From Chloroflexota bacterium (GTDB lineage: Bacteria; Chloroflexota; UBA11872; VXOZ01): a DNA stretch of 64,000 bases. The DNA lies in contig JAAXIC010000014.1 of assembly GCA_012270555.1 (NCBI GenBank), positions 1,200-65,199 on the forward strand, in the 5' to 3' direction. The translations under genes were made by a program, and so were the position numbers. Under the pieces are notes generated by a model that saw only the letters and a program-made list of their open reading frames with translations, was not told the origin of the DNA and ran no database searches. Below, piece after piece: positions 4,947-47,261 of the stretch. Each line of letters begins with the position of its first letter. The stretch's first letter is position 1.

Positions 4947-6176
4947 ATGAGGCGTTTGCCTGCATACCCTCTGTCCATCGGCATGTCGGCCGTTGAGGGG
5001 ATCGCAATCGCGACCGTCATCACCACGAGTCTCGTGTACCAGGTCGAGACCGTCGGCCTCAACGCACTCCAGCTTGTGCTGGTTGGAACGGTGCTTGAGA
5101 CTACCGTCTTCATCTTCGAAATCCCGACCGGCGTCGTCGCCGACATCTACAGCCGCCGCCTCTCAATTTTAATCGGTCTGACTCTTGTCGGCGTTGCCTT
5201 CATCCTTGCAGGCTCCATCCCGCTCTTCGCCACGCTGCTTGCGGCACAGGTTGTATGGGGGCTTGGGATGACCTTTGGCAGTGGGGCCAGGACAGCGTGG
5301 CTGGCCGACGAAGTCGGCGCCGAACGGCTGCCGCACGCACTCCTGCGTGGTTCGCAGGCCGGCCTTGTCGGCGGGCTGGCGGGTGTGTCGCTATCCGTCG
5401 CCCTTGCCAGTGTTGATCGCAGCTTGCCGCTCATCGTTGGGGGCTGCATGTACCTCGCTCTCGCCGTGTTCTGTGCGTTCACCATGACCGAGCAGGGATT
5501 TCGGCCTGTGCCTGCCCATGAGCGCGAGACCTTCAAGGACATGGCGCGCACGCTGCGGCAAGCGCTGCAGATAGTCCGCCGGCGGCGGGTCCTGATCCTC
5601 ATTGTTATGGTGCCGTTCCTGTTTGGCGCCGCGAGTGAAGTCCCGGATCGCCTCAGTACGCCGTTCCTTCTGCAGACGATCACGCTGCCGTCCCTCGGAT
5701 CCTTGGATCCTGTCGCCTGGTTTGGCCTGAGCAGCTATATCTCAATGGGGCTCGGCTTTATTCTGCTGGAAGTCGTCAGGCGCACGGTGGATACCGCCAG
5801 AGATCGGGCTGTGGCGCGCGCGCTCATGGTGCTTCAGGCCCTCTACACCGGCAGCTTAGTTGCCTTTGGCCTCGCGACCACTCTACCCCTCGCCATGGCA
5901 ATGTTCTGGGCGCGAGGCCCTCTGCGACACGCCAGCGATCCGCTGCTGAGCGCTTGGCAAAACCGCTTCGTGCCCTCGCGTGTGCGCGCGACGGTCTTGT
6001 CCTTTGGAGGGCAGACGGATGCCGTGGGCCAGATGATCGGCGGCCCGCTCTTGGGAGCCGTCGCGCTTGGACTGTCGCTGCGCGTGGGTTTTCTGGCAGC
6101 CGCCGCGGTGTTGCTCCCGGTGGTGATCGTGTTCGCGCTGCTGGGACGGCCGCAGAGGGAGTCATCGGCTGATTAG
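4947..6176 (+). CDS. MFS transporter (TetA(P)-like subfamily)
   Basis: About 12 hydrophobic segments; FEIPTGVVADIYSRRLS motif A. Confidence 0.8.
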   Translation: MRRLPAYPLSIGMSAVEGIAIATVITTSLVYQVETVGLNALQLVLVGTVLETTVFIFEIPTGVVADIYSRRLSILIGLTLVGVAFILAGSIPLFATLLAAQVVWGLGMTFGSGARTAWLADEVGAERLPHALLRGSQAGLVGGLAGVSLSVALASVDRSLPLIVGGCMYLALAVFCAFTMTEQGFRPVPAHERETFKDMARTLRQALQIVRRRRVLILIVMVPFLFGAASEVPDRLSTPFLLQTITLPSLGSLDPVAWFGLSSYISMGLGFILLEVVRRTVDTARDRAVARALMVLQALYTGSLVAFGLATTLPLAMAMFWARGPLRHASDPLLSAWQNRFVPSRVRATVLSFGGQTDAVGQMIGGPLLGAVALGLSLRVGFLAAAAVLLPVVIVFALLGRPQRESSAD

Positions 6177-6254
6177 AGGAAGATTGGCGACCCAGTCACT
6201 AAGTGGCGACGTTTTGTAAGCTCACCATCGGCCTACGCTGGTTGGAGTATCGGC

Positions 6255-6833
6255 TCAAACGCTTTCGAGAATTGTACCCAGGTGGTACGCCGGTAGCGAA
6301 AGCACGACGAAAGACGGTAAGTCCAGGCGCTTCCACAAGGGAAACGGCTGGAGTCCACATGCCCGGGCCACGAAGAGCGTGATTACAGTACCGTGTGCTA
6401 CAACTGCGATTGTGTGTTCCGGATATTGCTTGATTACAGTGGACACGGCGTTGGAAAATCTTGCGTGAGCGTTGTCGGCAGTCTCTTGACCGAAGACGAG
6501 AGTTTGAGCATTCGCAAAGAACAGCGCAACGCGATTGTCGAATTGCTCTTTGGTGGGAAAGTATCCTTCATTGCTTCTATCATGCTCATGCAGGTTTGGC
6601 GCTGTTGCGCAGTGCGTGTCGAGTATTTTGGCTACAATCTCTCCGGTTTCTTGGGCTTTCGGTTCATTGCTAGTTACGAATACCTCAGGTGAATACACCT
6701 CTAGTTGCGCTGCGAGTTGTTCACAACGTTGTCGTCCCATTGGAGACAGATGCCACTGGTTCGCCGGTATGCTAGGAACTATCTCCGGAAGAGAGTGTTT
6801 TATGAGGATTAGGTGGTTCTCTTGCTGCGGCAA
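6255..6833 (-). CDS. Histidine phosphatase family protein
   Basis: LIKHS (variant of RHG), TSNEPKAQET, LHEH and VVAHG motifs. Confidence 0.75.
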   Translation of the reverse strand: MPQQENHLILIKHSLPEIVPSIPANQWHLSPMGRQRCEQLAAQLEVYSPEVFVTSNEPKAQETGEIVAKILDTHCATAPNLHEHDRSNEGYFPTKEQFDNRVALFFANAQTLVFGQETADNAHARFSNAVSTVIKQYPEHTIAVVAHGTVITLFVARACGLQPFPLWKRLDLPSFVVLSLPAYHLGTILESV

Positions 6834-6966
6834 CGTTTGATACTCTCACTGGTCAGGTTGTTTCTCTACGCTGCATTCTAAGCGAGCATTGATAGGTATA
6901 CAATCGTGGATGAGATGATTGGCGGCCACTTGGGCTAAAGACGGATCTGGCGACAAGGAGCTAGCG

Positions 6967-8238
6967 ATGCCGGGTAATCAAGAAGAGCTTGCGCAATCTG
7001 GCGGGACGCCAGCAGTAAATGAAGGGTCTGTGCAGCCGTGGCCGCATGTGGCAGCGGTGGACAAAGAAGCCGTGATGGGTGTGTTGGAGCGCGGCGTGCT
7101 GTGGGGAGCGGCGGCGCCGGAAGCGACGGCGCTGCAAGAGGAATGGGCGGCATACGTGGGCGCGCGTCACTGTTTGGTGACGAACAGCGGCACGGCGGCC
7201 TTGCACATGGCCGTAGCCGCGGCGGGCGTGCAGCCGGGCGATGAGGTCATCACCACGCCCATGTCCTGGTCGTCCACGGCCACGTGCATTCTCCACCACA
7301 ACGCGATTCCGGTCTTTGCCGACATCGATCCGGCAACCTATACGCTGGACCCGCAGCAGGTCGAGGCTAAGATCACGCCGCGCACCCGCGCCATCCTGCC
7401 GGTGCATCTTTACGGCCTGCCGGCTGACATGGACGGCATCATGGCGGTGGCGGAGAAGCACGGGCTGCAGGTGATCGAGGACTGCTGTCAGGCGCAGGCG
7501 GCGACGTACAGAGGGCGTATGGTTGGCACGCTGGGCCACGTCGGCGCGTTCAGCTTCAACGGCAATAAGAACCTGCCCGGCGGCGAGGGCGGCGCGCTGG
7601 TGACCGACGACGAGGAAGCCTGGGATATGGCGGCGCGGGTGCAGCAGTTTGGCGAGCGGCGGCGCAGCGACGGCGAGCGCGAGTACAACGTCTACGGCAT
7701 GGGCTGGATGTATCGCGGCACCGAGATGACCAACGCCTTCATCCGCTCCCAACTAACTCGCATCGACGAAACCACGGCGCACATCCAAGCGAACGCCGCC
7801 TATCTGGATGAACACCTGGCGGGTATTCCGGGACTGCGCTTGCCGCACGTGCCGTCCGGCCGCACCCACGTCTACTTTCGTTACGTGGCGGAGTTCGCGC
7901 CGGAAGAGGTCGGTCTGGACGTCGAACCGGGACCCGCTAGTGAAAAGGTCCGTGAGGCGCTGCGGGCGGAAGGTGTCGGCCTCGGCCGCGCGGAGTTCCT
8001 GCTGCCGCGCATGACGCTCTTTCAGGAGCAGGAAGGCTACGGTCGGGGCTGTCCCTGGGAGTGTTGCTACGATGGCACGATTGCATACCGTCCGGAAGAC
8101 TACCCGCATGCTGCCAACGCGGTGGATAGGGTCATTCCGCTGATGGGATTAACGCCGCCAAATGACGAAACGCTGATGGCGGGGTACGTAGGGGCATTTG
8201 AGAAGGTCTTTGGTCAGCTTGAGCGGGTTGTGGCTTGA
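6967..8238 (+). CDS. DegT/DnrJ/EryC1/StrS family PLP-dependent aminotransferase
   Basis: NSGTAALH, PVHLYG, IEDCCQA and FSFNGNKNLPGGEGG (PLP Lys); AAGGAG RBS before ATG 6967. Confidence 0.9.
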   Translation: MPGNQEELAQSGGTPAVNEGSVQPWPHVAAVDKEAVMGVLERGVLWGAAAPEATALQEEWAAYVGARHCLVTNSGTAALHMAVAAAGVQPGDEVITTPMSWSSTATCILHHNAIPVFADIDPATYTLDPQQVEAKITPRTRAILPVHLYGLPADMDGIMAVAEKHGLQVIEDCCQAQAATYRGRMVGTLGHVGAFSFNGNKNLPGGEGGALVTDDEEAWDMAARVQQFGERRRSDGEREYNVYGMGWMYRGTEMTNAFIRSQLTRIDETTAHIQANAAYLDEHLAGIPGLRLPHVPSGRTHVYFRYVAEFAPEEVGLDVEPGPASEKVREALRAEGVGLGRAEFLLPRMTLFQEQEGYGRGCPWECCYDGTIAYRPEDYPHAANAVDRVIPLMGLTPPNDETLMAGYVGAFEKVFGQLERVVA

Positions 8239-8300
8239 CAAGAGTGCTTGAGGGACTCGGATCCCTAGCACTTCTACCTATGCCAAGCGACGCCGTCCAT

Positions 8301-8325
8301 GCTTCGACAGGCTCAGCACGAACGG
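8301..8325. repeat. Intergenic repeat, family B (CTTCGACAGGCTCAG..CGAACGG)
   Basis: Related copies at 9532-9633, 16738-16825 and 18536-18726. Confidence 0.7.
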
Positions 8326-8404
8326 CTTGCTAGCCAAATGGCCACTCTCTAAGCAGCCATTTGCTGTTCACGCGGGCGCCCAACAAGAAGCGTTCCGGGA
8401 GCAA

Positions 8405-9415
8405 TTAGCGATCTCCTACCAGACTGATTGGCTTGCCGCTGGCGGCTGAGCGCTGGGCCGCATCCACCACGCGCACCGCTTCATGCGCGTGCTTTAACTT
8501 GACGGCCGGCTCCGCGCCGGTGCGCAGACAGTCCACGAAGTGCTTGACCTCATGAAAGATGGCGCCGACGTAGTCCGCTCCCAACGTCGGGCCGTACCAG
8601 GTGTCGTGGGTCTCAACCTGCTCGCCGGAAATCGTGAGGCTCGTGGCCGGTGCGCAATCGATGCGGATCATGCCTTTGGTGCCGACGGCGTCGAGGCGCG
8701 CGTCCAGCGCCCGGAAGTCTTGGGCGGGCAGCGTCCATGCGTGCTCAAAGCTGGCAACGGCGCCGGAGGCGAATTTCACAAGGGTAAAGACCGCGTCGTC
8801 GATGCCGAGATCAGTCGCTAGCACCTGGTGGGACTCCGCCGTAACGCGCACCACCGGTTCGTCTACCATCGAGAGCACGTACTCGATGTCGTGAATGCCG
8901 AGGAATTGCAGCACGGTTGTGTTGCCCTCGAACTTTTCGGCGCTGTCGATGGGATTGTTGCGGCGGGCGTAGACGTGAATGACGTCGCCGATTGCGCCGC
9001 GCCGGAAGTCTTCCAGCGGCATGGCGTAGCGGGGATCGAAGTGGAGGGTGTGCCCCACCAGCAGCGTGATCCCGGCGCGCTTTACGGCGGCGACCATGTC
9101 GTCGGCGTCGGCAACCGCGATGGCGAGCGGCTTCTCAAGCAGGATGTGTTTGCCGGCCGCCGCCGCTGCGATCACGGCGTCACGATGATCCCAGTCCGGC
9201 AGGCAGATGCTCACCGCCTGAATGTCTTCGCGTTCGAGTAGCTGCCGCCAGTCGGCGTATACGTCCGCGCCGGCCGGGTCGGCGGCTGCGTGCGCCGCCT
9301 GTGCATTCAAATCGGCAACGGCCCGCAGTTGCACTTCGGGAAGCTGCCGGTAGACGTTAGCGTGCCGTTGTCCCATCTGTCCGGCGGCAATGACGCCGAT
9401 GCCGATTTGTTCCAT
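8405..9415 (-). CDS. Gfo/Idh/MocA family oxidoreductase
   Basis: Rossmann N-terminus, GKHILLEKP, GIHDIE. Confidence 0.9.
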   Translation of the reverse strand: MEQIGIGVIAAGQMGQRHANVYRQLPEVQLRAVADLNAQAAHAAADPAGADVYADWRQLLEREDIQAVSICLPDWDHRDAVIAAAAAGKHILLEKPLAIAVADADDMVAAVKRAGITLLVGHTLHFDPRYAMPLEDFRRGAIGDVIHVYARRNNPIDSAEKFEGNTTVLQFLGIHDIEYVLSMVDEPVVRVTAESHQVLATDLGIDDAVFTLVKFASGAVASFEHAWTLPAQDFRALDARLDAVGTKGMIRIDCAPATSLTISGEQVETHDTWYGPTLGADYVGAIFHEVKHFVDCLRTGAEPAVKLKHAHEAVRVVDAAQRSAASGKPISLVGDR

Positions 9416-9531
9416 TTCCCTATTCTCCCATTAGATGAAATAAGGGCATGTAAACACGCCCCATGTGGCTTGCAATTTAGCTGCTTATACTCTCGAACTC
9501 ATCTCATTGATGCCTCGCTCCGCGCAGGTGT

Positions 9532-9633
9532 GCCCTTCGACAGGCTTTGGGCGAACGGAAGAGGTGAAGATTTGTTCGTGCTGAGTGCTGCGCGAAGCCT
9601 GGGCTTTATGAAGCCGTCGTCGAAGCACGAAAC
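9532..9633. repeat. Intergenic repeat, family B, inverted pair
   Basis: CCCTTCGACAGGC..GGGCGAACGG followed by GTTCGTGCTGAG...GTCGAAGCACGAA. Confidence 0.75.
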
Positions 9634-9735
9634 GGCATGACGAATCTACTTATGAGATAGTTTCTATTGACCGTGTTTACCCTTTGCATTAGTTAGTCGC
9701 TGCCTGGACCCAATCTAGACGGAGCGGTCCACCTT

Positions 9736-10767
9736 CTACATCTGCTCCGCGATCAAGTCGGCAGGTTTCACCGGCTGGCCGGTCTCGATAGACCGCTCGG
9801 CCGCTTCGATCATAGCCACCACGGCTAAGCCGTCGCGTGCCGGTATCGCCGGTTCACCGCCGTCCAGCACGCAGTCCACCATGTTACGCATCGAATTGCC
9901 CCATGAGTCGTCGGTCTTGAAATACGACCACATCTTGGGCCGAATGGTGAGTTGGCGTTCTTCAGTATCCAGCGAAAACCCGCGATTGGAGCGGTCCAGC
10001 GTAACCTTGCCGGCAGTGCCGTAGAGCGAGAGATACTGCTCGACAATGGCCGGATAGCCTTCCGGCACGATCCAGGAAGTCTCGAACGTGATTGTGCAAT
10101 TCTCGAACTCCACCATCGCCTGCACGAAGTCGTACGCATCCACGCCCTTCTGCGGCAGCAAGCGCTTCTCGCCGCGGGCATAGACGCTTACAGCTTCTTG
10201 CCCGATGATCCAGCGCATGTAGTCCATGGTATGGGGAAAGAGGAACCAGTGCGGGCCGGATTGGCTGCCCCACGAGAGCATTTGGGTGGGCACCCACACG
10301 GTGTCGGAGAGGCGCGAGAAGCCAAAGACCGGCTCGCCGATTTCGCCGCTCTGCACGCAATCGCGCAGTTCTTGGATGTCGTTGACCCAGCGATTGCCGA
10401 GGCTCACGCTGAAGAGGCGGTTATTGCGTTCGGCGGCTTGCACCATGGCTACCGCGTCGGCAACGGTGGTGGCCAGCGGTTTTTCGACGAGCACGTGCTT
10501 GCCGGCTTCCAGCATGGTGACGACCGCGTCGCGATGGGCGAAATCGGGCGTAGCCACGCTGACAAGGGCAACGTCGGAGGCTGCAATGGCATCAAGGTCT
10601 GGCGCAGTTTGGCATCCCAGGCGGTCTGCCACCGTTTGCGCGCGCTCAGGGTTAGCGTCAAAGACGAATTCGAGGCTGGCGCGGTCGTACGCCGCGTAAA
10701 CATCGGCATGCTGCTCGCCAATCAGGCCCACGCCGACAACGGCAGTGCTCAGGCGGTCACCTGCCAT
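9736..10767 (-). CDS. Gfo/Idh/MocA family oxidoreductase
   Basis: VVGVGLIG, GKHVLVEKPLA. Confidence 0.9.
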   Translation of the reverse strand: MAGDRLSTAVVGVGLIGEQHADVYAAYDRASLEFVFDANPERAQTVADRLGCQTAPDLDAIAASDVALVSVATPDFAHRDAVVTMLEAGKHVLVEKPLATTVADAVAMVQAAERNNRLFSVSLGNRWVNDIQELRDCVQSGEIGEPVFGFSRLSDTVWVPTQMLSWGSQSGPHWFLFPHTMDYMRWIIGQEAVSVYARGEKRLLPQKGVDAYDFVQAMVEFENCTITFETSWIVPEGYPAIVEQYLSLYGTAGKVTLDRSNRGFSLDTEERQLTIRPKMWSYFKTDDSWGNSMRNMVDCVLDGGEPAIPARDGLAVVAMIEAAERSIETGQPVKPADLIAEQM

Positions 10768-10787
10768 GGCTGTCCCCCTAGGCGACG

Positions 10788-11168
10788 CTACCTGACCTCG
10801 AATTCCTCAGTCCACGAGATCTGGCCCTCTTCGGCCACTGCCGTAACCATGACAGTGTATGTGCCAGGCTCTAGTGTTTCGGGGACCGTCCACGTCCAGC
10901 GCACAAAACCGTCCGTCCCCGCCGTCTGGGCCGTGAACTCCTCAATTGCAATCGTCTCTTCGCCCCGCATGAGCGCGGGCGTAACTTCGGCCCCTTCCTT
11001 CGAGGCAGCGTGGAGGATAGCCTCGCTCCCACGGTGCACGATCTCAGAGTACGTGAGGATGCGCAGGGGGATGAACTGCGCTTCTTCAGGGGGTTTTTCT
11101 CCGATGCCGAGCTGGCACGCGCTGAGAAGCGTACCGCCAGCCACTACCAAGAAGGCTCGTCTTCGCAT
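10788..11168 (-). CDS. Small lipoprotein with an Ig-like beta-sandwich fold
   Basis: MRRRAFLVVAGGTLLSAC (Tat-like RR plus lipobox); WTWTVP..PGTYTV; GGAGG RBS. Confidence 0.6.
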   Translation of the reverse strand: MRRRAFLVVAGGTLLSACQLGIGEKPPEEAQFIPLRILTYSEIVHRGSEAILHAASKEGAEVTPALMRGEETIAIEEFTAQTAGTDGFVRWTWTVPETLEPGTYTVMVTAVAEEGQISWTEEFEVR

Positions 11169-37691: not shown

Positions 37692-37948
37692 TCTTTGCGT
37701 CTGCCAGCCTGAGTTATGCAAAGGTCTCCAGGTGGGTGTTTTTGGTCGCGTAACGGTGTACGTGTGCCCTATAGCGAGCATGCTGTCGCCAAAGTCCCCT
37801 CGGTCGCCTACATCGTCACTGGTTTGACGGTCTGCTTCTCTGCGACAAGACCACCTACGCTACAATAGTCGTTGGGTTGAGCGACGAAGAGTTCATCTGC
37901 CCGTACTTGCATTGGAGATTGCGGGCCGCGGAGATTTTACCGGCCTCA

Positions 37949-38725
37949 ATGGACACGAATACACTGCGCGAGCTGCTAGCGGAATTGCAGCGCGGCGCGA
38001 TAGACATCGAGCAGGTGGTACGCCGCATACGCTTGGCGCCCTACGAGGACCTCGGCTTTGCCAAGGTGGACGCGCAACGGCAATTGCGGGTCGGTTTCCC
38101 GGAGGTGATCTACTGTCCCGGGAAGACCGCGGCACAGGTCACCGCCATTGCCGAGGAGCTACTGGCCCACGATCAAACCGTGCTAGCCACGCGCGCGACA
38201 CCGGAACTCTACGCGGCGTTGCAAGCGCGCATCCCGGCTGCCGAATACCATGAGGACGCCCGCGCCATCGTCGTCCGCCGTGAGACACGCCGCCTTGCGC
38301 AGGGGCGCGTAGCGGTGGTCGCGGCGGGCACCGCCGACTTGCCGGTGGCGGCAGAGGCCAGCTTAACGGCGGAACTTATGGGGTGCCGCGTGGATCGTCT
38401 GACAGACGTGGGTGTGGCCGGCCTGCACCGACTTTTGCTGAATCTGGAAACGGTGCAGCAGGCGCGCGCCGTGGTTGCCGTGGCCGGCATGGAGGGTGCG
38501 CTGCCGAGTGTACTTGCCGGTCTCATCGATCGTCCCGTTATAGCGGTGCCGACGAGCGTCGGTTACGGCGCATCCTTGGGCGGTCTGACGCCCCTCCTCA
38601 CAATGCTAAATAGCTGTGCCGCCGGGCTGGCTGTGGTCAACATTGACAACGGATTTGGCGCCGGCTACGTGGCGGGTCTGATTTGCCGCATGGCGGAAAG
38701 CAGTGACACACAGGTAGCGCCATGA
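37949..38725 (+). CDS. larB: Nickel pincer cofactor biosynthesis protein LarB
   Basis: GFPEVIY..GK, AGTAD, DVGVAGLHRL, AGMEGAL, PTSVGYG, NSCA, VVNIDNGFGA. Confidence 0.93.
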   Translation: MDTNTLRELLAELQRGAIDIEQVVRRIRLAPYEDLGFAKVDAQRQLRVGFPEVIYCPGKTAAQVTAIAEELLAHDQTVLATRATPELYAALQARIPAAEYHEDARAIVVRRETRRLAQGRVAVVAAGTADLPVAAEASLTAELMGCRVDRLTDVGVAGLHRLLLNLETVQQARAVVAVAGMEGALPSVLAGLIDRPVIAVPTSVGYGASLGGLTPLLTMLNSCAAGLAVVNIDNGFGAGYVAGLICRMAESSDTQVAP

Positions 38726-39888
38726 GAGTCGCGTATTTCGACTGCTTTGCCGGCGCTTCCGGCGACATGCTGCTTGGCGCTCTGGTAGATGACGGGTGGG
38801 CGCTGGATGACCTCAAGGCGACGTTTGCCAAGATTCCGCTCGGCGGCTATGCGGTTCGCGCGGAAGAAGTGCGCAAGGGTCTGCTCCGCGCCTTGCAGGT
38901 GCATATCGAGATCGACGCCGACGAGCATACGGTGGAGCGAAACCTTGCAGACATCGTGCAGTTGCTCGAGGCAAGCAGCCTGGATGAGGACATTGCCGCT
39001 ACGAGTAGGAAGCTCTTTGTCCGGTTGGCGGAAGTCGAGGGCCGCATGCACGGCGTGGCGCCGGAAGCCGTGCACTTCCATGAAGTCGGCGCGGTTGACT
39101 CTATCCTCGACGTCGTCGGCGTGGTTGCGGGACTAAAGGCGCTTGGCATCGAGCGTGTTGTTTGCTCGCCTGTGAACGTTGGCGGCAGCCCGCCCATTCA
39201 GACCCGCCACGGCTGGTGGCCGATCCCGGGCCCGGCGACGCTCGATCTGATGAAGGGTAAGCCCATCTATGCCGTGCCGGACATGGGCGAGACGCTCACG
39301 CCCACCGGCGCGCTCTTGCTGAGCGAATTGGCGGACGAGTTTGGTCCCATCCCGGCCATGCACGTGGAACGCGTGGGTTACGGTGCCGGCATGCGCGATA
39401 GCGCTATCCCCAATGTGCTGAGGATGATCGTGGGAGAGGAGTCTGCCGGGGAGACGCAGGGCATGGCAACCGTCATCGAAACCACGATCGACGACATGAA
39501 CCCACAGTTGTACGGGCACGTAACCGCACAGTTGCTTGCAGCCGGGGCGCTGGATGTGACGCTGACCCCGGTGCAAATGAAGAAGGGCAGGCCCGGCCAC
39601 GTGCTCAGTGTGCTGACAGAGGCCGCAGACCACGGACCCCTGCTGGACGTGATCTTTGGCGAAACGACGACCATTGGCGTACGGCTGCATCGCGTCGAGC
39701 GCATCAAGCTGGAGCGGCAGGTTGAGCACGTGGCAACGCCGTGGGGCTCGGTGCGCAGAAAAGTGGCGCACTGGCGCGGCACGGTTGTGAATCGCAGCCC
39801 TGAGTACGAGGACTGCTTGCGGGTCGCCACGGCGGCACGGGTGCCGGTCAAGCAGGTCATGGATTACGCGCGTACGGCCTCCGTATAA
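38722..39888 (+). CDS. larC: Nickel pincer cofactor biosynthesis protein LarC
   Basis: DCFAGASGDM, HFHEVGAVDS, TPTGA, ETTIDD, MKKGRPG, ETTTIG, PEYED. Confidence 0.93.
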   Translation: MRVAYFDCFAGASGDMLLGALVDDGWALDDLKATFAKIPLGGYAVRAEEVRKGLLRALQVHIEIDADEHTVERNLADIVQLLEASSLDEDIAATSRKLFVRLAEVEGRMHGVAPEAVHFHEVGAVDSILDVVGVVAGLKALGIERVVCSPVNVGGSPPIQTRHGWWPIPGPATLDLMKGKPIYAVPDMGETLTPTGALLLSELADEFGPIPAMHVERVGYGAGMRDSAIPNVLRMIVGEESAGETQGMATVIETTIDDMNPQLYGHVTAQLLAAGALDVTLTPVQMKKGRPGHVLSVLTEAADHGPLLDVIFGETTTIGVRLHRVERIKLERQVEHVATPWGSVRRKVAHWRGTVVNRSPEYEDCLRVATAARVPVKQVMDYARTASV

Positions 39889-39999
39889 GTGCGCTCATTT
39901 GCTCTTTGTACGGGGCTGCTATCATAGACTATGAGGGGTATGTGGGGTAAGGGGCCGGAGTGTTGTGACAAGAGATTCAAGCGAGAAGAAGAGGTGCCG

Positions 40000-40503
40000 A
40001 TGATGGGGTCTTCTGAGGTGCGGCCGGAGCAGATGCCGGTGGGCAATGACGTTTCGGAAGACGTTTCTCAAGAAGCAGTAGACAACGGCGGGCAAAGCGC
40101 TGTTGGAGACGCTACGGACGTGGACGAGCGTTTTCAGATCACGAACAGTCTTGTGCGGCACGTGGTCGCGGACGACATCGATATGCAGAATACCGCTGCC
40201 GGGGTCGTGCAAGCGGAGGCCGCCTCACTGCAGCAGGGGCTCACCGGTATCGCTGCCGGCCATGAAGTCAGCGTGACAGAGGGGGCCACGTGGCTGGTGC
40301 TGGGCGGCAGCGTGGATACGAATTACTCCGTGTCACAATGGATCGTCGGCGGACAGATCGAGGCGGAACAGGTGGCAAGCGTGGTGGTGGTTGGCGGACG
40401 AGTGAATGGCAACGTCAACACGCTCCTCGATACCCGCGGCGCGGCCATCTGCGGACTCGTCATCGGCCTCTGCTATATCCTCTTCCGTCTCATCCGTCGT
40501 TAA
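40000..40503 (+). CDS. Hypothetical protein with beta-helix-like small-residue repeats and a C-terminal TM anchor
   Basis: GAGG RBS; regular V/A/G pattern; hydrophobic C-terminus ending RLIRR. Confidence 0.55.
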   Translation: MMGSSEVRPEQMPVGNDVSEDVSQEAVDNGGQSAVGDATDVDERFQITNSLVRHVVADDIDMQNTAAGVVQAEAASLQQGLTGIAAGHEVSVTEGATWLVLGGSVDTNYSVSQWIVGGQIEAEQVASVVVVGGRVNGNVNTLLDTRGAAICGLVIGLCYILFRLIRR

Positions 40504-40594
40504 CTACTGTAGGAGACATTTGCACAAGCAGGCGTAAAGACCTCCCTCTCCCTGGAATACCCTTGTATGTCCCAGGGGCTGAAGGCGAAAGGCT

Positions 40595-40627
40595 TCCTCT
40601 CCTTGGGGAGAGGGCCGGGGTGAGGGG
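40595..40627. repeat. Family A palindromic repeat
   Basis: TCCTCTCCTTGGGGAGAGGGCCGGGGTGAGGGG. Confidence 0.75.
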
Positions 40628-40705
40628 AAAGCGTCACCGCTCCAGCCCAATGCCCACTGTTTGGCAGAGTTGCGCAAAGGTCTCTACGGAGAGGTTGGTA
40701 CGTTC

Positions 40706-41449
40706 ATGCAGCTAACGGAGACTGTGTACTTAGTTGGCAGCGGTCAGAATGGCTTCAGCCTCACCGACCCCTTGGACTGCCACGTCTACCTCCTGGACGG
40801 AGGATCGGAAATGGCCCTTATCGATACCGGTGTGGGCAGAGACGTGCCGGCCATAGTTGCGGAGATCGAGGCGGCGGGTTTCGACCCTGGCGACATTGCA
40901 AAGATCTTCATTACGCACTTGCACCTCGATCACTCCGGCGGCGCGGCGGCATTGCAGCAAGTGTGTGGCGCTGAAATTGTTGCTTCTCAAGACGTGGCGG
41001 GCTGGCTTGAGACTGGTGACGAAGAGGCCGCGAGCCTGGTTGCCGCCCGGCAGACCGGCATGTATCCGTTGGAAAACCGCCTGCGGCCGGTGGCGTCCGC
41101 GACGGCTGCTACGGCCGGCGACGTGATTGCCGTGGGCTCCCTCAGGGTAACGGTAGTGAAGGCCGACGGGCACAGCCAGGGCCACCTGGCATTCCTCTTG
41201 GATGATGGTACGCGCCGCGCCCTCTTCAGCGGCGACGCCCTCTTCTTTGGCGGACGCATTCTGCTGCAAAACATCTGGGATTGCTCGCTGGAGGAGTCCA
41301 TCGCCACCGTCCGGCGCTTTGCCAAGCAGGAGTTCTCACAATTCTTCCCCGGCCACGGGAGCTTTTCGTTCCAGGACGGCAAGCGTCACGTGGACGCCGC
41401 CATGGTGCAAATCAAGCAACTCCTTCCCCCGCCGCAGCTTGAAACGTAG
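40706..41449 (+). CDS. MBL-fold metallo-hydrolase
   Basis: LIDTG, THLHLDHSGG, GHS.GH, SGD, PGHG. Confidence 0.9.
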   Translation: MQLTETVYLVGSGQNGFSLTDPLDCHVYLLDGGSEMALIDTGVGRDVPAIVAEIEAAGFDPGDIAKIFITHLHLDHSGGAAALQQVCGAEIVASQDVAGWLETGDEEAASLVAARQTGMYPLENRLRPVASATAATAGDVIAVGSLRVTVVKADGHSQGHLAFLLDDGTRRALFSGDALFFGGRILLQNIWDCSLEESIATVRRFAKQEFSQFFPGHGSFSFQDGKRHVDAAMVQIKQLLPPPQLET

Positions 41450-41726
41450 GCTGCGATTTCTCGCATTCCAGCACGTTTGCATTGGCAAATAGGGGCTTCG
41501 GGTACAGTTCTTCACCCGGAGCCCCCGAACTTTCCGTTAATCACACCTATGCGGAAGACTTCTCAATACTTTCCTTCCGGCTGCATACCACATTCTTAGT
41601 GAAATTTCAGGATTCGTTAACATATCCGCTGCTACCATATAGCCAAGAGGACCTACTGCGGCCCAAGAGAGACTGCCAATAGACGGGGCACTGCGGAAAC
41701 AGTCACCGGCAACGGGGAGCGGCACC

Positions 41727-42404
41727 ATGCATCTCCTGTTGAGTGAAGATAACGCGCCAGTCGGAGAGGCGCTCAAGCACCTGCTACAGCATACGGGCTT
41801 CGTGGTCGATTGTACTTCGCTGCGTGACTGCGAGGCGTTCGCCGAAAGCGGCGCGTATGACCTCGTGATCCTTGACTACGGCGCGGAGCCCGCGCGCGGC
41901 TTGGCGCTGCTCCAAGAACTACGGCATGCGGATGATGCCGTGCCAGTGCTGGTCGTCGGCATGCGCGGCGGGATGGAGGATTGTGTTCGTTTGCTGGAGG
42001 CGGGGGCGGATGGCTATTTGGCCTCGCCGTTTCGGCAGAAGGAACTTGTGGCCTACGCGCGGGCCGTGCTGCGGCGTTGCTGCGGCTTTCCCCAGCACGG
42101 AGAGCTGCTGCGCAGCGCTGATCTGGCGCTGGACCTGTGGCATCAACGCGCCACCCGCGCGGGACAGCCACTTACACTGACATTCAGGGAATTCCAGTTG
42201 CTGGAGTACCTGTTGCGCCGCGCCGGCAACGTATGCACCCGCGCTGAATTGCTTGATCACGTCTGGGGCCTGGAGAAAGCCCGCAGCGAAAACGTGGTTG
42301 AGGCATACATCGGATTCTTGCGCCGCAAGATCGACCGCGGCTTTGCGCCCAAGCTCATTCACACGGTACACGGGATGGGGTACGTGCTGGCTGTGCAAAG
42401 TTGA
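41727..42404 (+). CDS. OmpR/PhoB family response regulator with an atypical receiver domain
   Basis: YDLVILD receiver; winged helix LTFREFQLL..NVVEAYI..LRRKI..IHTVHGMGY. Confidence 0.9.
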   Translation: MHLLLSEDNAPVGEALKHLLQHTGFVVDCTSLRDCEAFAESGAYDLVILDYGAEPARGLALLQELRHADDAVPVLVVGMRGGMEDCVRLLEAGADGYLASPFRQKELVAYARAVLRRCCGFPQHGELLRSADLALDLWHQRATRAGQPLTLTFREFQLLEYLLRRAGNVCTRAELLDHVWGLEKARSENVVEAYIGFLRRKIDRGFAPKLIHTVHGMGYVLAVQS

Positions 42405-42458
42405 AGGCGGCACGGATATTGGCAAGAGCCGTCACTACGATGGCAAGGAGGCTGACCG

Positions 42459-43004
42459 ATGGAAGCAATTGGCGTAACGCTGTTGCTGCAACTGCTGGCG
42501 GGCGGTATCTTCCTCCTGGCTGCCGCCGCCAAGCTGCTGCACTTGGCTGAGTTCAGAGCCGCGGTGCACGGGTTTGGCGTAGTGCCTTTCGGCGCGCTCC
42601 CGCTCGTGAGCGGCGCAATCCCTCTGTTGGAACTCCTCTGCGGCACCTTGCTCATCACCGGCCTGGCTGCGGTGTGGGGCGTGTGGTTGGGCATTGGCCT
42701 CGTCATTACTTTCATCGCCGCGTCGACCATCGCCTTGGCGCAGGGTCGGGGCGGGACTGAATGCTACTGCTTGGGCGCGGGCGGTCAACCGCTGGGCAAA
42801 GCCACCATCATCAAACAGGTCGCCATTCTCGCGATACTCGTTTTCCTTGCGCCCACGGCCGGGTCTACCTGGTTCCTGGATAGCGGGTTTACTGCCGACG
42901 TAAGCGGCGTGGCCGGAACTGCGGTGTTCGTGGCCGGCGCTTGGGCGGTCGCCTTCGTCGTAGCCGAACTGCTGCGGCTGCGCACGCTTTCACAATCACG
43001 CTGA
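42459..43004 (+). CDS. MauE/DoxX family membrane protein
   Basis: About 5 TM segments; F..AAAAKL, PLLE and CxC motif (GRGGTECYCLG) as in MauE; AAGGAGG RBS. Confidence 0.85.
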   Translation: MEAIGVTLLLQLLAGGIFLLAAAAKLLHLAEFRAAVHGFGVVPFGALPLVSGAIPLLELLCGTLLITGLAAVWGVWLGIGLVITFIAASTIALAQGRGGTECYCLGAGGQPLGKATIIKQVAILAILVFLAPTAGSTWFLDSGFTADVSGVAGTAVFVAGAWAVAFVVAELLRLRTLSQSR

Positions 43005-43019
43005 GGAAAAGACAATCCG

Positions 43020-43180
43020 TCATTTCCGTGAAAACTCGCCCCCGTGCGGGGGCGCGGAATCCATCTTCACAAGAGTAGCGCGGGGGCTTGTCCCCCGCAG
43101 TGGGAGCAAACAGACCGTCATTCCGGCGGAAGCCGGAATCCAGGAAGGGTAGGTAGCGTAGGTTTGTAACCTGCGCCACG
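43020..43180. repeat. Composite REP-like cluster between the mauE-like and mauD-like genes
   Basis: 43075-43095 is the exact reverse complement of 16671-16691; 43116-43143 is family C; GTAGCGTAGGTTTGTAACC resembles the hairpin at about 16517. Confidence 0.8.
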
Positions 43181-43212
43181 TGGTTTCCGGTGAGAACAGA
43201 AAGGAGCAAGTC

Positions 43213-43785
43213 ATGGAAGGCATCTGGCTGACAACATACCTCTTGCAATGGGCGCTGATGGGTCTGCTCGTCTTCATCGTCATCGGCCTCATGCGCCAGA
43301 TTGGCGAGATGCGCCTGCGGGTCGGGGAAGAGCGTGAGATGGGCCTCGCCGTCGGGGGCACAGCGCCGCTCTTCCAGGGAGAGGGTCTCGATGGGACCGT
43401 AGACCTAGAGACCATGGTGGGTGAACGGTTACTGGTGCTCTTCGTCCATCCCACCTGCCCGCCCTGCAAGGAGTTCTTTAGAAGCCTGAACGGAGAGGCG
43501 GAGCACATAGCAGAACAAGGCGTGAAGATGGTGCTGGTGAGCGGCGGCAGCCAGGAGCAGAACCGCGAGATGGTTGACGAATACAAGCTCACGTGTCCGC
43601 TGGTGATCCAGCAGGAGCACGAGATTGCCGATTTGTACGGCAGTAGCTGGACGCCGTTTGGCTTCGTGGTCGATGCCGACGGCAATATCGCCGGAAAGGG
43701 GGTGGTGAATGATGTGCATGTGCTAGGCGAACTGCTCGCTAAAGATGCGACGGCAGGCAGTTCGCCAAAGCCTGAAAGCACGTGA
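43213..43785 (+). CDS. MauD-like membrane-anchored thioredoxin-fold protein
   Basis: N-terminal TM followed by GLMRQIG (MauD-type LRQ(I/V)G), GL.VG..APLF, FVHPTCPPCK (CxxC), cis-Pro TPF, AGKG.VN; AAGGAG RBS. Confidence 0.85.
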   Translation: MEGIWLTTYLLQWALMGLLVFIVIGLMRQIGEMRLRVGEEREMGLAVGGTAPLFQGEGLDGTVDLETMVGERLLVLFVHPTCPPCKEFFRSLNGEAEHIAEQGVKMVLVSGGSQEQNREMVDEYKLTCPLVIQQEHEIADLYGSSWTPFGFVVDADGNIAGKGVVNDVHVLGELLAKDATAGSSPKPEST

Positions 43786-43867
43786 CGGTCGCACACGTCG
43801 TGTGACATTATCACGCCCAATAGTCGCATCACAGACGCAATGCATGCAACGCATGGGAGGTAAACCC

Positions 43868-44191
43868 ATGGATAAGCTGATCGAAGACGCAAGTGTCAGC
43901 CTTGCAAAGGCCGGCATGGACCGTCGCGGCTTCCTGGGCAAGCTGGCGCTGGCGGCGACAGGCGCCGGGGCGCTCTCCGTTCTCTTTGCCTCAGGCGTGA
44001 GCGCCGATCACTGTAGCGGGAGTCACTTCTGTGAGACCAGCCGGAGTATCATAAGCTACTGTGGCGGTTCGTGCTCGTATAACAAGAAAACAAAGGAGCT
44101 TAGGCAAGAAGGCAAGGATTGCTATACCGGTGCGTCATGCCCCGCGCTGTACAGCTTCTACGGCTGTGGAAGCAGCGGTAGCTGTCCGTAA
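43868..44191 (+). CDS. Tat-exported cysteine-rich peptide precursor (107 aa; about 61-aa mature part with 8 Cys)
   Basis: GGGAGG RBS before ATG 43868; DRRGFLGK twin-Arg motif, hydrophobic stretch, VSA|DH cleavage site. Confidence 0.8.
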   Translation: MDKLIEDASVSLAKAGMDRRGFLGKLALAATGAGALSVLFASGVSADHCSGSHFCETSRSIISYCGGSCSYNKKTKELRQEGKDCYTGASCPALYSFYGCGSSGSCP

Positions 44192-44361
44192 CGGCGCTGA
44201 TTGTTGGCTCCGCCTGCGCTCTACGGCGAACGCAGGCGAACCGGGTCAGCGCAGAGGCCTGATGGAGGGATTGTACCCTCCATCAGGCGCACTGTCGTAG
44301 CTTGACCGGTGTGAGCGACCGCAGAGCATAGGCACACGTACCGTACAAGGAGGAATGAACT

Positions 44362-45681
44362 GTGATTTCCCGTCGCGCGCTTGTGGCAAGCACGGCAGTC
44401 CTCGCGGCCGGCTGTAGCATGTCACGCCTACCTTTCCCGGTGCCGGGTCTTGCAAAGAAAGCGGAACTCACCTGGGTATCCCAAAGCAATCAACTAGGCC
44501 TCAATCTGCCATGGGGGGTGAGTGGTGAGGAACTGCTGCATCGCGCGCTGGTAGCGCTTGAGGAGGATACAGAGAATCCTTACGGCCCCGCGCAAGGCGG
44601 CTATAACATCACTTTGCGACACCTGGTACCCACAGACGACGGGCAAACCAAGGACGAGTTTGCTGCCCAGATCCGCGAACTCAAGGCAGACCTCGTTACT
44701 GTGTCGCTCGGCGAGGCGGTGGCGTTGGGAGAGAGGGGGGTGTTGCTGCCCTTGGAGCAGTTTAGCAACCTCGATGGCGGCGAAATTCATCGCGCCTACT
44801 TCCCCAGTCTGCTTGAGCAGTTTAGCGATCAAGGCGCCCTCTACGCCTTGCCGGTGGACGCGGGACCGCTGATGCTCTACTACGACTCCGACTACTTTGA
44901 ATTGGAGCAGGTACCGCCGGTGGACAGTAGCTGGGATTGGAACGACCTGGTAGAGAACGCGGTGAAACTGACGAGGCGCAGAGATGATGGCACGCTGCTG
45001 CGCTGGGGATTGGCGCCGCACCTGTTTGGCATCTGGTGGGCCCTCTGGCAGAACGAGGCAGAGGTGGTTGACTCGGATACCTTGCGGTGCCGCTTGCAGG
45101 AACCGGCCGCCACCCAAGCCTTGCAGTTCTTCTCAGACTTGATCCATTCCCATCGCGTCACCCCACCGTTACACAGAGAGATTTGGGATCTGATTCGTGG
45201 GTCAGTGGGTTCTCCACCGGTGGGGATTCCCCCGGCGATGGTGTATAGTGTTCCCCCTCTGGGACCGCAGAGCAGACACTACCATCTGGCAGAGTTGCCC
45301 AGGGGCAAGACGCAGAGCGTACCGGTTAATCCCAGCATCGGCATCGCCATTGCCGCGCAGACCGAGAGTGCAGAAACGGCCTATCTGGCGCTCAAAGGCC
45401 TGGTGGATATCATGCAACAATTCGCCATCGTGCCTGCGGGAAGGGAAGCGGCCGCCAACCTCGGTGAGATTCGGTCCGACCTCCACCCGGAAGAGATTGG
45501 GGCGATACAGCGGTCACTAGAAGCCGGACGCGGACTGCCGTGGCATACGCTCGCCGCAATGCATGCTATGGACACTGCAGTGGGTGATCTGGTGCGCGGT
45601 GACGACGTAGCCACCGTGGTCAACCATGCATGCTCACTCGCGCGTGAATACCAGCAAACCGGCGGGCAGACTCGCGAGTGA
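44362..45681 (+). CDS. Extracellular solute-binding lipoprotein (family 1-like, divergent)
   Basis: SRRALV..LAAGC lipobox; ALYALP..LMLYYD..F, WDW. Confidence 0.75.
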   Translation: MISRRALVASTAVLAAGCSMSRLPFPVPGLAKKAELTWVSQSNQLGLNLPWGVSGEELLHRALVALEEDTENPYGPAQGGYNITLRHLVPTDDGQTKDEFAAQIRELKADLVTVSLGEAVALGERGVLLPLEQFSNLDGGEIHRAYFPSLLEQFSDQGALYALPVDAGPLMLYYDSDYFELEQVPPVDSSWDWNDLVENAVKLTRRRDDGTLLRWGLAPHLFGIWWALWQNEAEVVDSDTLRCRLQEPAATQALQFFSDLIHSHRVTPPLHREIWDLIRGSVGSPPVGIPPAMVYSVPPLGPQSRHYHLAELPRGKTQSVPVNPSIGIAIAAQTESAETAYLALKGLVDIMQQFAIVPAGREAAANLGEIRSDLHPEEIGAIQRSLEAGRGLPWHTLAAMHAMDTAVGDLVRGDDVATVVNHACSLAREYQQTGGQTRE

Positions 45682-45959
45682 GCGGTATGCCCTCTATCAT
45701 GCTCCATACGAACGCACGCCGTTCTCGCTCAGCAGTCTTAGTGCGGGGCTAGTCCTCCCGCTTGCTGGCGCAAGCAGTGGGCCGCTAAACCCCTCAGTCA
45801 TTGCGGTCAACCAAGCCTGCTCCGTCCTCTATGAAAACCGGTGACACGCTACTGACTTTGCCCCCACACGGCGGGGCACTCTGCTCTTTCAAGCAAGAAG
45901 AGCACTTTTCGGGCAAAGCGGCAAGATTCGTCCGTCATAAGCATGGAAGGAGCGAGACG

Positions 45960-47261
45960 ATGCTCTCACGCCGAACGCTGATAGGCAGCACCGCTGTACT
46001 CGCGGCTGGCTGCGGCGGGCTGGATCTTCCGTTCCCTGAATTTGGCACCCCAAAGATTACTCCATTGACTTGGGTCTCGCGCCCGGTCCCCAATCTCAAC
46101 ACCGGGCCAGGCATGACGTCCTTTCTGCAGCAACTCCAACGGGTAGAGCGAAGTCTGTCAGAAGACACGGAAAGCCCCATTGGCCCCACGCGCGGACGGT
46201 ACAGCCTCACTCTGGAATACTATGAGACCTATGCGGGCAGCTATTCGGATCCTGAGTCGCCACACTTTCTCAGTCCAAAGCACTTGGCGGAGTGGCTGAA
46301 AGAAGTCGATGCTGACCTTATAACGCTGTGGAGTGACGAGGTGCGTGCACTGGAGAATCATGGCGTGCTACTGCCCTTGGACCAATTCGGTGGCGCAAAT
46401 GGTGAGGATTTCGAGCGCGAGTTCTTCGCGCCAGTACTTGAGCCGTATCGCGAGAGCGGCGCGCTCTATGCCTTACCATTGAACGCGTTTCCCTTGATGC
46501 TCTACTACGATGCCGACTACTTTGCACAAGTAGGAGTAACGCCGCCGGATAGGAGTTGGGATTGGGATGTCTTGGTGGAAAATGCGCTCAAACTAACTGA
46601 GCGGGGCGACGACGGTACGGTTGAACGCTGGGGATTGGAATCTCTCGGAGAGGCAATCTGGTGGGCGCTCTGGCAGAACGAAGCGGAGATGGCTGATGTG
46701 CTAACGTCACAGTGCCGGCTGCAGGAACCTCCGGCTCTTGAAGCCATTGAGTTCGTCCGGGGATTGATTCATTCTCACCGCGTTTCACCTCCGGCTCTTG
46801 GTGCTGACCGATTCGAATTGCTTTACAATTCGCCGCGCCCACCAGCGATGGTGTACAGTACTTTCCCGCTTGACTTGATACACTTCAACTATCGATGTGC
46901 TGTCCTACCCATGGGCAAGGTGCGTAGTATTCCTGTCGAAACATACCCGGGGATCGCAATTGTGGCAGAAACAGCCGCGCCGGAAGCAGCCTATGCGGCC
47001 CTTAGGGGTCTGGTGCGCTCTTTCCAACAATTTGCGAACGTACCAGTGGAGAAAGAGGCCATGGGGCGGATAGGTAGAATTCGGAGAGATTTGCGGCCGG
47101 AGGAGGTCGCGGCGATGCAGCAATCAATGGAGCTCGGACGGCTGTTGCCGGAGAGTGAGACCCAGCGAACTGCCATGCGTAGCATTCTGGATGCACTGGT
47201 GCGCGGCGACGACGTAGCGGCAGTGGTCAACCAAGGATGTACCGCTCTTTATGGAGCCTAG
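45960..47261 (+). CDS. Extracellular solute-binding lipoprotein, paralog of 44362-45681
   Basis: SRRTLI..LAAGC; shares IWWALWQNEAE, CRLQEP and LVRGDDVA.VVN with the upstream paralog. Confidence 0.75.
   Translation: MLSRRTLIGSTAVLAAGCGGLDLPFPEFGTPKITPLTWVSRPVPNLNTGPGMTSFLQQLQRVERSLSEDTESPIGPTRGRYSLTLEYYETYAGSYSDPESPHFLSPKHLAEWLKEVDADLITLWSDEVRALENHGVLLPLDQFGGANGEDFEREFFAPVLEPYRESGALYALPLNAFPLMLYYDADYFAQVGVTPPDRSWDWDVLVENALKLTERGDDGTVERWGLESLGEAIWWALWQNEAEMADVLTSQCRLQEPPALEAIEFVRGLIHSHRVSPPALGADRFELLYNSPRPPAMVYSTFPLDLIHFNYRCAVLPMGKVRSIPVETYPGIAIVAETAAPEAAYAALRGLVRSFQQFANVPVEKEAMGRIGRIRRDLRPEEVAAMQQSMELGRLLPESETQRTAMRSILDALVRGDDVAAVVNQGCTALYGA

Follow-up and report, generated by a model that had tools for sequence, protein, structure and literature searches.

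Introduction

The mau gene clusters of Paracoccus and Methylobacterium carry mauE, mauD, and mauA in this order, encoding a membrane protein, a redoxin, and a small disulfide-rich protein with a twin-arginine leader. The same order, with a MauE-family protein, a MauD-like redoxin, and a small, probably disulfide-rich protein that likewise has a twin-arginine leader, is present in the DNA described here, a 64,000-nucleotide stretch (hereafter the window) from a Chloroflexota bacterium (assembly GCA_012270555.1, contig JAAXIC010000014.1, positions 1,200–65,199). The source genome is assembled in 56 contigs and is 97.4% complete.

MauE has been studied outside methylamine metabolism. In the available text of a 2026 preprint, two MauE proteins, from other phyla, replace DsbB in Escherichia coli with the CxC motif as the active site, conserved Lys, Glu, and Phe residues are named as likely to bind quinone, and a thioredoxin-fold partner, either MauD or DsbA, is named as the likely intermediary (bioRxiv 10.64898/2026.03.05.709764). 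According to the same text, MauA occurs in only 10.2% of species with MauE, and MauE without MauA is the rule. Kloosterman et al. 2020 (PMC7794033), in the portion available, describe three candidate families of RiPPs (peptides made on the ribosome and modified after translation) from Streptomyces that are accompanied by mauE, one of them also by mauD, with at least eight Cys in the precursors, and propose that the MauE/MauD homologs modify the precursor. Additionally, class I lasso peptide clusters contain HumE, a DoxX-family membrane protein, and HumF, a thioredoxin-domain protein, which the accessible part of that report assigns to the two disulfides of the peptide (PMC7168211).

In the window and its relatives, the MauE-MauD pair is tied to a family of Cys-rich peptides that are predicted to leave the cell by twin-arginine translocation (Tat), and each peptide gene examined is followed by a gene for a solute-binding protein (SBP)-like lipoprotein. 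The original prediction for this locus, made from the DNA alone, had proposed a stand-alone system for oxidative folding and export. The tie of the pair to a Cys-rich Tat cargo, with no mauA or mauB, stands, while the constant lipoprotein partner (24 of 24 cases) had been overlooked.

Results

A MauE-MauD pair precedes a Cys-rich peptide gene at the MauE loci of the genus

Open reading frames (ORFs) and sequence place four co-oriented genes on the + strand at 41727–44191, encoding an OmpR-type regulator, MauE, a MauD-like redoxin, and a twin-arginine precursor, all four preceded by Shine-Dalgarno-like sequences. This gene set, read earlier as four co-oriented genes each with a ribosome-binding site, was confirmed by the ORFs, family matches, and sequence, with two starts corrected by reading the sequence. 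The MauD-like gene (43213–43785, + strand) starts at ATG 43213 behind AAAGGAG and encodes 190 residues, and the peptide gene starts at ATG 43868 behind GGGAGG and encodes a 107-residue precursor. The MauE gene lies at 42459–43004 (+ strand). The predicted leader of the precursor (43868–44005, + strand) comprises an 18-residue N-region, the motif RRGFLGK, a mildly hydrophobic h-region, and a VSA cleavage site, so read that cleavage would fall at VSA|DH. The mature Cys-rich miniprotein (44006–44191 including the stop codon, + strand) would have 61 residues with eight Cys and no Trp.

The original prediction that a MauE-MauD pair is kept next to a small Cys-rich protein with a Tat signal was extended to the genus. 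At 15 of the 16 MauE loci of the genus, MauE lies 1.3–2.5 kb upstream of a peptide gene of this family in the order MauE-MauD-peptide. Because this order recurs at 15 of 16 loci, the arrangement is not due to chance. MauE occurs in 10 of the 17 genus genomes, and all 10 hold the peptide; five genomes lack both, and two peptide-holding genomes (G010 and G011) lack MauE. The window's own genome has a single MauE in a profile search. The peptide was found in 11 of the 16 other genus genomes, with up to eight copies per genome. Among 61 related genomes, credible peptide matches (E ≤ 1e-19) were confined to the genus, the best match outside it having an E value of 0.002.

The remaining MauE locus (L031; G004:C1:1258000-1274000, 995–10851) encodes MauE, a MauD-like protein with CEIC, and an unrelated 112-residue Tat peptide with 16 Cys, for which a sequence-relative search found nothing. 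The locus continues with three SBP-like genes interleaved with genes for 200-residue multi-pass membrane proteins of no known family, and a gene for a membrane-anchored β-propeller lies divergently upstream.

Unrelated Cys-rich cargo follows MauE-MauD elsewhere in the phylum

Within the class, 26 of 98 genomes have MauE. Outside the genus, three further genera of the class have MauE-MauD followed by unrelated Cys-rich ORFs with Tat-type signals. In genus g5, MauE and MauD are succeeded by a membrane protein, a peptide of 103–108 residues with 12 Cys, and an SBP-like gene, and in g8 and g2 the pair is followed by a Tat peptide with 13–15 Cys and no SBP. The link to an SBP thus recurs in g5 and also in one genome of another family (L121 and L131).

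Across the phylum, 60 of 401 sampled genomes had a MauD-like match at E ≤ 1e-8. Selection by eye of matches from other classes that extend over the N-terminal anchor gave about 28, and 20 loci were examined. A survey of this kind, looking for variable Cys-rich cargo beside MauE and MauD, had been suggested with the original prediction; 14 of the 20 loci of other classes have a small ORF with 8–22 Cys behind mauD and on its strand, and these sequences are unrelated to the family in the window. A script with fixed filters found 17 candidate ORFs in 21 one-kb windows after mauD, compared to 1.8 expected from the rest of the loci, a count that takes in the doubtful L127 and misses L117.

Two side observations concern these loci. 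In g8, a small CxxCH protein resembling cytochrome c is encoded just downstream of the cassette at both loci (L064 12058–12414 and L067 7692–8195). In G026, a small ORF with 14 Cys after the MauD-like gene (L069 2298–2633) showed no twin-arginine or hydrophobic signal by eye; some cassette cargo may exit by another route, or the start at L069 may be miscalled.

The peptide has a conserved leader and a variable, Cys-rich core

The twin-arginine signal of the precursor matches TIGR01409 with 18.2 bits (cut-off 16.7), and TatC is encoded in the same genome (214.7 bits), so that export by the Tat pathway is predicted from sequence. Mean pairwise identity is 74% in the leader and 39% in the core. 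Cys is invariant in five columns of an alignment of 25 sequences and nearly invariant in three more, and all 23 full-length copies contain 8, 10, or 12 Cys. The even counts indicate that additional Cys arise in pairs, as expected if all of them are disulfide-bonded, and on this pattern the cargo looks disulfide-bonded.

Based on 18 usable pairs of 253 within the dS range, the ratio of nonsynonymous to synonymous substitution rates (dN/dS) was 0.11 over the leader and 0.38 over the core. This purifying selection identifies the ORF as a real coding gene. An AlphaFold (AF2) model made on the family alignment gave a predicted local distance difference test score (pLDDT) below 50 for leader residues 1–44, whereas the ten-residue blocks between 51 and 100 reached pLDDT 77–87 and were modeled as a three-stranded sheet. 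A Foldseek search of the PDB with the mature fold returned no matches at E ≤ 1e-3, and the ESM Atlas provided no usable match for the peptide.

The family is very narrow. A word-index search among 5.8 billion proteins returned nine clusters, and a profile of 25 members had 14 matches among 1.84 billion representatives. Two profile matches, P0021 (a repeat protein) and P0020 (2683 residues, no aligned stretch), look spurious.

Each peptide gene is paired with a gene for an SBP-like lipoprotein

Beyond the four genes, the peptide gene is followed by a gene for an SBP-like Tat lipoprotein (SBPa; 44362–45681, + strand), and a gene of this kind stands directly after 24 of the 24 peptide genes examined. 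The protein has about 430 residues, with an RR-type lipoprotein signal (e.g., MLSRRTLIGSTAVLAAGC), a lipobox, and two invariant Cys. Its SBP_bac_1/8 matches are weak (50.8 and 45.5 bits), and its best relative in the PDB is the arabino-oligosaccharide binding protein 6rjy (E 6.8e-17). A second SBP-like Tat lipoprotein gene (SBPb type; 45960–47261, + strand; SBP_bac_1, 53.8 bits; start MLSRR read from sequence) follows and lacks an accompanying peptide gene. Besides the paired SBP genes, the arrays hold 23 full-length unpaired ones, this gene among them.

In relatives, peptide-SBP units occur in tandem. In G004, the order peptide-SBP-peptide-SBP-peptide-SBP-SBP-SBP-SBP-peptide-SBP was found behind one MauE-MauD pair. 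Distances between peptide cores correlate with those between partner SBPs (Mantel r 0.78, p 1e-4), also within genomes (r 0.76 over 32 paralog pairs), and in 23 of 24 cases the three closest SBPs include the partner of the nearest peptide. These sequence comparisons show the peptide and its SBP-like gene to be the unit of duplication and divergence. The peptide-linked SBP copies form the top-scoring group of the SBP family, at about 630–720 bits.

A predicted peptide-SBP complex scored 0.13 against a mark of 0.32 and was counted neither for nor against binding. SBP-family loci elsewhere in the genome include C8:72188, C11:13399, C16:1346, and C35:309. Among the matches listed, six such loci of the genome were compared with its 18 BPD_transp_1 matches, and none shares a contig with any of these; two of the six lie at contig ends, where an adjacent permease gene may have escaped notice. 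The in-frame TAG seen in many SBP matches is a real stop near the end of the profile, and readthrough was rejected.

The spacer between the peptide and SBP genes contains a G+C-rich stem-loop (44257–44288, + strand), an inverted repeat with perfect arms of 13 bp. A long stem is present in all 24 peptide-SBP spacers, with consensus arms of roughly GCAGAGCGCC...GGCGCTCTGC, and 7 of the 10 pairs of the consensus helix show compensatory changes. No canonical T-run follows the stem-loop. It is likely to serve as a terminator, an attenuator, or a stabilizer of the transcript end, and it probably sets a high ratio of peptide to lipoprotein transcript.

The MauE and MauD-like proteins retain their expected active site residues

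The MauE protein matches PF07291 with 66.6 bits (cut-off 27), placing it in the MauE family, and has CYC at residues 102–104. At least 90% of 26 aligned MauE-like proteins retain Lys25 in the first helix, Glu58 in the second helix, the CxC motif, and the Gly following it. These conserved features match those named in the available text of the preprint (bioRxiv 10.64898/2026.03.05.709764). The residue after CxC is Leu in the window and Phe in relatives. By analogy with DsbB, MauE is presumed to be a quinone-linked thiol oxidase.

The redoxin matches AhpC-TSA with 64 bits, and its best NCBIfam match is the MauD family TIGR02661 (57 bits, profile positions 8–180 of 189). The equivalog cut-off of 188.6 is reached neither by this protein nor in any of the 401 phylum genomes sampled. 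With its N-terminal membrane anchor and a CxxC motif (CPPC), the protein is on sequence grounds MauD-like in architecture and not a MauD equivalog. All of 10 aligned MauD-like homologs share the CxxC, the cis-Pro, and the Trp/Arg of the anchor, and the protein is presumed, again by analogy, to act as a direct oxidase or isomerase of the cargo. Since MauE keeps Lys, Glu, CxC, and Gly, and MauD keeps CxxC and cis-Pro, the machinery looks active. Elsewhere in the genome, a DsbB-family gene was found (52.2 bits), and searches of the genome for VKOR and Thioredoxin_4 found neither.

The regulator lies outside the conserved unit

The OmpR-family response regulator (41727–42404, + strand; Pfam Trans_reg_C 89 bits, Response_reg 59 bits) had been counted as part of the cassette, an assignment that did not hold in relatives. 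None of the 17 loci compared from relatives has it, and a 93% identical ortholog was found only in G014, again beside MauE, which gives the regulator a presence in 2 of 17 genus genomes. This distribution marks it as a lineage-specific addition outside the conserved unit. No kinase gene lies beside it. OmpR-family receivers usually have Lys before the Pro, and the receiver reads GADGYLASPF by eye at this position; the regulator may act without phosphorylation. A metagenomic ORF (P0016) fuses the receiver domain of the regulator to a peptide core, apparently through a deletion.

The MauE-MauD spacer is 208 bp long in the window and much shorter in relatives. It holds dispersed, G+C-rich hairpin repeats resembling repetitive extragenic palindromes (43020–43180, no strand), identified by genome matches, DNA depth, and folding. 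These have 48 matches in the same genome, a fold z-score of −2.7, and, in one metagenome DNA run, a depth of about 400 compared to about 5, a spike of about 80-fold. The same run confirmed the sequence of the locus. In one G005 cassette, MauE and MauD are separated by an inserted 336-residue ORF (L017 10281–11291) that by eye, from its helix-turn-helix start, resembles an insertion sequence transposase. This cassette is among several that are decaying.

Library scans of the neighbors (Pfam and NCBIfam) took in the genes from 39931 to 47261 and identified MBL-fold, regulator, MauE, redoxin, and SBP genes only. Upstream of the regulator, a gene for a hydrolase of the metallo-β-lactamase (MBL) fold (40661–41449, + strand; Pfam Lactamase_B, 84.8 bits) flanks the primary locus on the left and is syntenic within the genus. 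Its ortholog stands upstream of MauE in 8 of the 17 loci compared from relatives and is absent from secondary arrays (L015). We regard the hydrolase as a syntenic flank, with any functional part in the cassette only putative. Further upstream (37877–39888), two genes resemble, by eye, LarB- and LarC-type genes for synthesis of the nickel-pincer cofactor. DNA nearly identical to the locus occurs in runs from six studies labeled as coral reef, sponge, and marine metagenomes, and these labels fit a host- or reef-associated organism.

Discussion

A proposed dedicated oxidative-folding pair for a secreted miniprotein

The explanation that we favor, and hold to be probable if only modestly so, is that MauE and MauD are dedicated to the oxidative folding of a polymorphic secreted miniprotein, which in turn works with the neighboring lipoprotein. 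The twin-arginine signal of the 107-residue precursor would direct its export, followed by cleavage after VSA. Outside the membrane, the membrane-anchored MauD-like protein would use its CPPC motif to oxidize or shuffle the eight Cys into four disulfides, and the CxC loop of MauE would reoxidize MauD and deliver the electrons to quinone, in the manner of DsbB with DsbA. The resulting product would be a small β-rich miniprotein knit by disulfides, with a hypervariable core made behind a conserved leader, and it may act with the membrane-anchored lipoprotein as a cognate pair. We infer the export and redox steps from DsbB/DsbA and the available preprint data, and the direction of the redox reaction, the disulfide state, binding of the lipoprotein, and the biological role are to be read as proposals of the same kind. 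The genes present, their order and co-occurrence, the pattern of conservation, and the lack of the other mau genes are observed.

The conserved leader, variable core, co-diverging lipoprotein, orphan copies, patchy distribution, and arrays lead us to prefer an effector with a binder, the latter being an immunity protein or a receptor. On this sequence pattern, such a polymorphic effector-binder pair is the most likely form, though its odds are modest. We give less weight to a ligand-receptor pair or to a role as accessory subunit, and it is possible that the peptide and the lipoprotein have no physical link at all. A broader generalization can be offered only tentatively and is rather doubtful as a whole, namely that across Chloroflexota the MauE-MauD pairs service exported, hypervariable disulfide-rich miniproteins of diverse sequence and no described function, which in this sponge- and reef-associated genus are polymorphic surface ligands or effectors locked to a co-diversifying SBP-like receptor or immunity partner.

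Several observations weigh against the favored explanation. Peptide and SBP genes persist where MauE and MauD are not intact, with neither gene in G010, only a MauD remnant in G011, no MauE and a truncated MauD at one G006 locus, and a MauE with in-frame stops or a frameshift in G007 and G015. Because the peptide and SBP genes persist where the pair is deleted or broken, either the pair is dispensable or those copies are decaying. MauD belongs to the AhpC/TSA-ResA group, whose known members are mostly reductants, and the redox direction cannot be read from the sequence. The SBP family is also larger than the peptide family. All 17 genus genomes hold 2–25 copies, often in tandem and including the genomes without a peptide, which gives these lipoproteins a peptide-independent function. 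Co-divergence of neighboring genes follows from joint duplication and is no proof of binding, and a 430-residue sugar-type SBP would be an unusual immunity protein. No sequence pair has a dN/dS above 1 over the whole core (18 usable pairs of 253), so diversifying selection was not shown. Finally, expression and chemistry are only predicted; three RNA runs, chosen by species label, gave 0 mapped reads and therefore provide no test.

Alternative explanations

MauE and MauD might instead constitute a general or SBP-directed disulfide system, whose clients are the SBP-like lipoproteins and other exported proteins, with the peptide as one client or simply a neighbor. The available text of the preprint makes the case for MauE as a generalist, with only about 10% of the species that have it also having MauA (bioRxiv 10.64898/2026.03.05.709764). 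Within the present data, the two invariant Cys of the SBP-like proteins point the same way, as do SBP-like genes that neighbor MauE in other genera, once without any MauD or peptide being detected in between (L075 and L078). However, 7 of the 17 genus genomes have no MauE match and yet carry 2–10 SBP-family copies, and MauE/MauD stand only at the head of peptide-bearing arrays, never at peptide-less SBP arrays among those listed. Furthermore, the Cys-rich ORFs that follow mauD in 14 of 20 phylum loci are mostly without an SBP, and the genome has its DsbB-family gene. Because the pair co-occurs with the peptide, is missing from the seven SBP-holding congeners, and shares its genome with a DsbB-family gene, it appears dedicated and not housekeeping, and we consider the generalist alternative unlikely.

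A second alternative, which we judge to be more improbable still, is that the Cys and the N-terminal His of the motif DHCxGSHxC bind metal. The peptide would then be an extracytoplasmic copper, zinc, or cluster-binding protein that Tat exports in folded form, with MauE/MauD maintaining the state of its thiols under control of a CopR/CusR-like regulator. Tat export often serves cofactor-bearing proteins, and the use of a Tat signal by the peptide agrees with such a role. His and Cys lie close together after the cleavage site and are conserved in many copies, and the best NCBIfam match of the regulator is a heavy-metal response-regulator subfamily (161 bits). However, this match remains below the cut-off of 279, and the regulator is limited to 2 of 17 genomes. 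In 8 of 25 aligned copies, Tyr stands in place of the second His (GPYFC), and no ferredoxin-type CxxCxxCxxxCP spacing is present in the peptide. Cys numbers are even in every case and rise two at a time, as expected for disulfides. Since the SBP-like lipoproteins carry Tat-type signals as well, use of the Tat pathway is not special to the peptide.

The last alternative is a decaying or reused remnant of a quinoprotein amine dehydrogenase, with a peptide derived from a MauA-type subunit and with the SBP-like protein or the β-propeller at L031 replacing MauB. It draws on the resemblance of the MauE-MauD-small Tat protein order to mauE-D-A, on the β-propeller gene divergently beside the L031 cassette, and on a match of the L031 peptide leader (residues 4–28) to the leader part of TIGR02659 (E 8e-4). 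The latter is a weak lead only, as it covers the leader alone and was not repeated in the other 21 of the 22 cassette peptides scanned, and the L031 propeller has no PF06433 match. The original prediction had noted no mauB, mauG-like, or amicyanin gene in the window and had held the cargo to be distinct from an amine dehydrogenase small subunit, with a genome-wide search for mauB and mauG as the natural check. In the genome, MauA (PF02975) and MauB (PF06433) had no match at E ≤ 1, the latter with 0 candidates, and the best MauG (PF03150) match reached 14.9 bits, under the cut-off of 25.6. These searches bear out the absence genome-wide, and the peptide itself likewise had no PF02975 match. No Trp column is conserved among the 25 aligned peptides, without which the tryptophan tryptophylquinone (TTQ) cofactor, which needs two Trp, is not possible, and no methylamine dehydrogenase light chain was among the PDB matches shown for the predicted fold. 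On this gene and residue content, the cassette is not a methylamine dehydrogenase remnant, an origin that we regard as very improbable.

Implications

The dedicated-pair explanation would provide a natural set of clients for a MauE/MauD pathway outside methylamine metabolism, a pathway recently proposed as a major bacterial route to disulfides. MauE, MauD, the precursor, and the lipoprotein make up a compact four-gene unit that is testable in a heterologous host, and the peptides supply small disulfide-rich scaffolds that are new and resemble no solved structure. Binding between the partners, if the pairing does reflect it, would mean that SBP folds in host-associated Chloroflexota have an unrecognized use, that of a receptor or immunity factor for secreted miniproteins. 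Should the more tentative generalization of diverse miniproteins locked to lipoprotein partners be true, it would amount to a new kind of recognition system between secreted peptides and SBPs. If the pairing does not reflect binding, the locus is still a tidy case of a client-dedicated oxidative-folding module.

Comparison with known systems

Compared to the mau clusters, the locus has no MauA or MauB match, no MauG match over the cut-off, and a 61-residue cargo without a conserved Trp. The MauD score is 57 compared to 188.6 bits, and the place of amicyanin and the remaining components is taken by an SBP-like lipoprotein. With the MauE proteins of the preprint, as far as its available text describes them, the protein in the window shares the CxC loop, the Lys and Glu residues, and occurrence without MauA (bioRxiv 10.64898/2026.03.05.709764). 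However, those proteins are argued to be generalists, whereas MauE is accessory here, being without a match in 7 of 17 genus genomes, and is tied to one cargo gene family.

The Streptomyces families, in the portion of the report available, likewise place MauE/MauD homologs beside a small Cys-rich precursor in genomes without other mau genes (PMC7794033). The present locus differs in its phylum and in the unrelated sequences of its peptides. It also has a Tat signal, tandem arrays, and an obligatory SBP-like neighbor, which would be further differences unless the Streptomyces clusters share them. Similarly to HumE and HumF in the accessible description of the lasso clusters (PMC7168211), a DoxX/MauE-type membrane protein and a thioredoxin-fold protein are encoded in the peptide's own cluster, and response regulators are present as well. 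In contrast to the lasso peptides of that description, the cargo here has about 60 residues, four predicted disulfides, and a predicted Tat exit. No lasso cyclase, leader protease, ABC exporter, or radical SAM-type modifying enzyme was found among the genes scanned between 39931 and 47261.

Lantibiotic and bacteriocin loci with LanI-type lipoprotein immunity are marked by a conserved leader, a variable core, a cognate downstream lipoprotein, orphan immunity genes, and a stem-loop after the structural gene. The locus described here shares the conserved leader and the stem-loop, the pattern of a variable gene with a co-diverging downstream gene (24 of 24 paired, Mantel r 0.78), unpaired extra copies (23 SBP genes), and patchy presence among species. 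It differs from LanI-type loci in that the lipoprotein is a 430-residue homolog of sugar-type SBPs from a large family with peptide-independent members, and an antimicrobial role is putative, by analogy with those loci.

In calling this an undescribed system, the original prediction went too far, considering that the 2026 preprint on generalist MauE (bioRxiv 10.64898/2026.03.05.709764) and Kloosterman et al. 2020 (PMC7794033) precede it in part. In a literature search, no publication was apparent that links MauE/MauD to SBP-like lipoproteins or to Chloroflexota peptides, and supplements such as S2 Table of PMC7794033 might bear on this link. Beyond these precedents, the peptide family and its predicted fold appear to be new, as do the recurrence of the cassette across Chloroflexota, the Tat leader and the organization in tandem arrays, the constant SBP-like partner, and the stem-loop conserved between the two genes.

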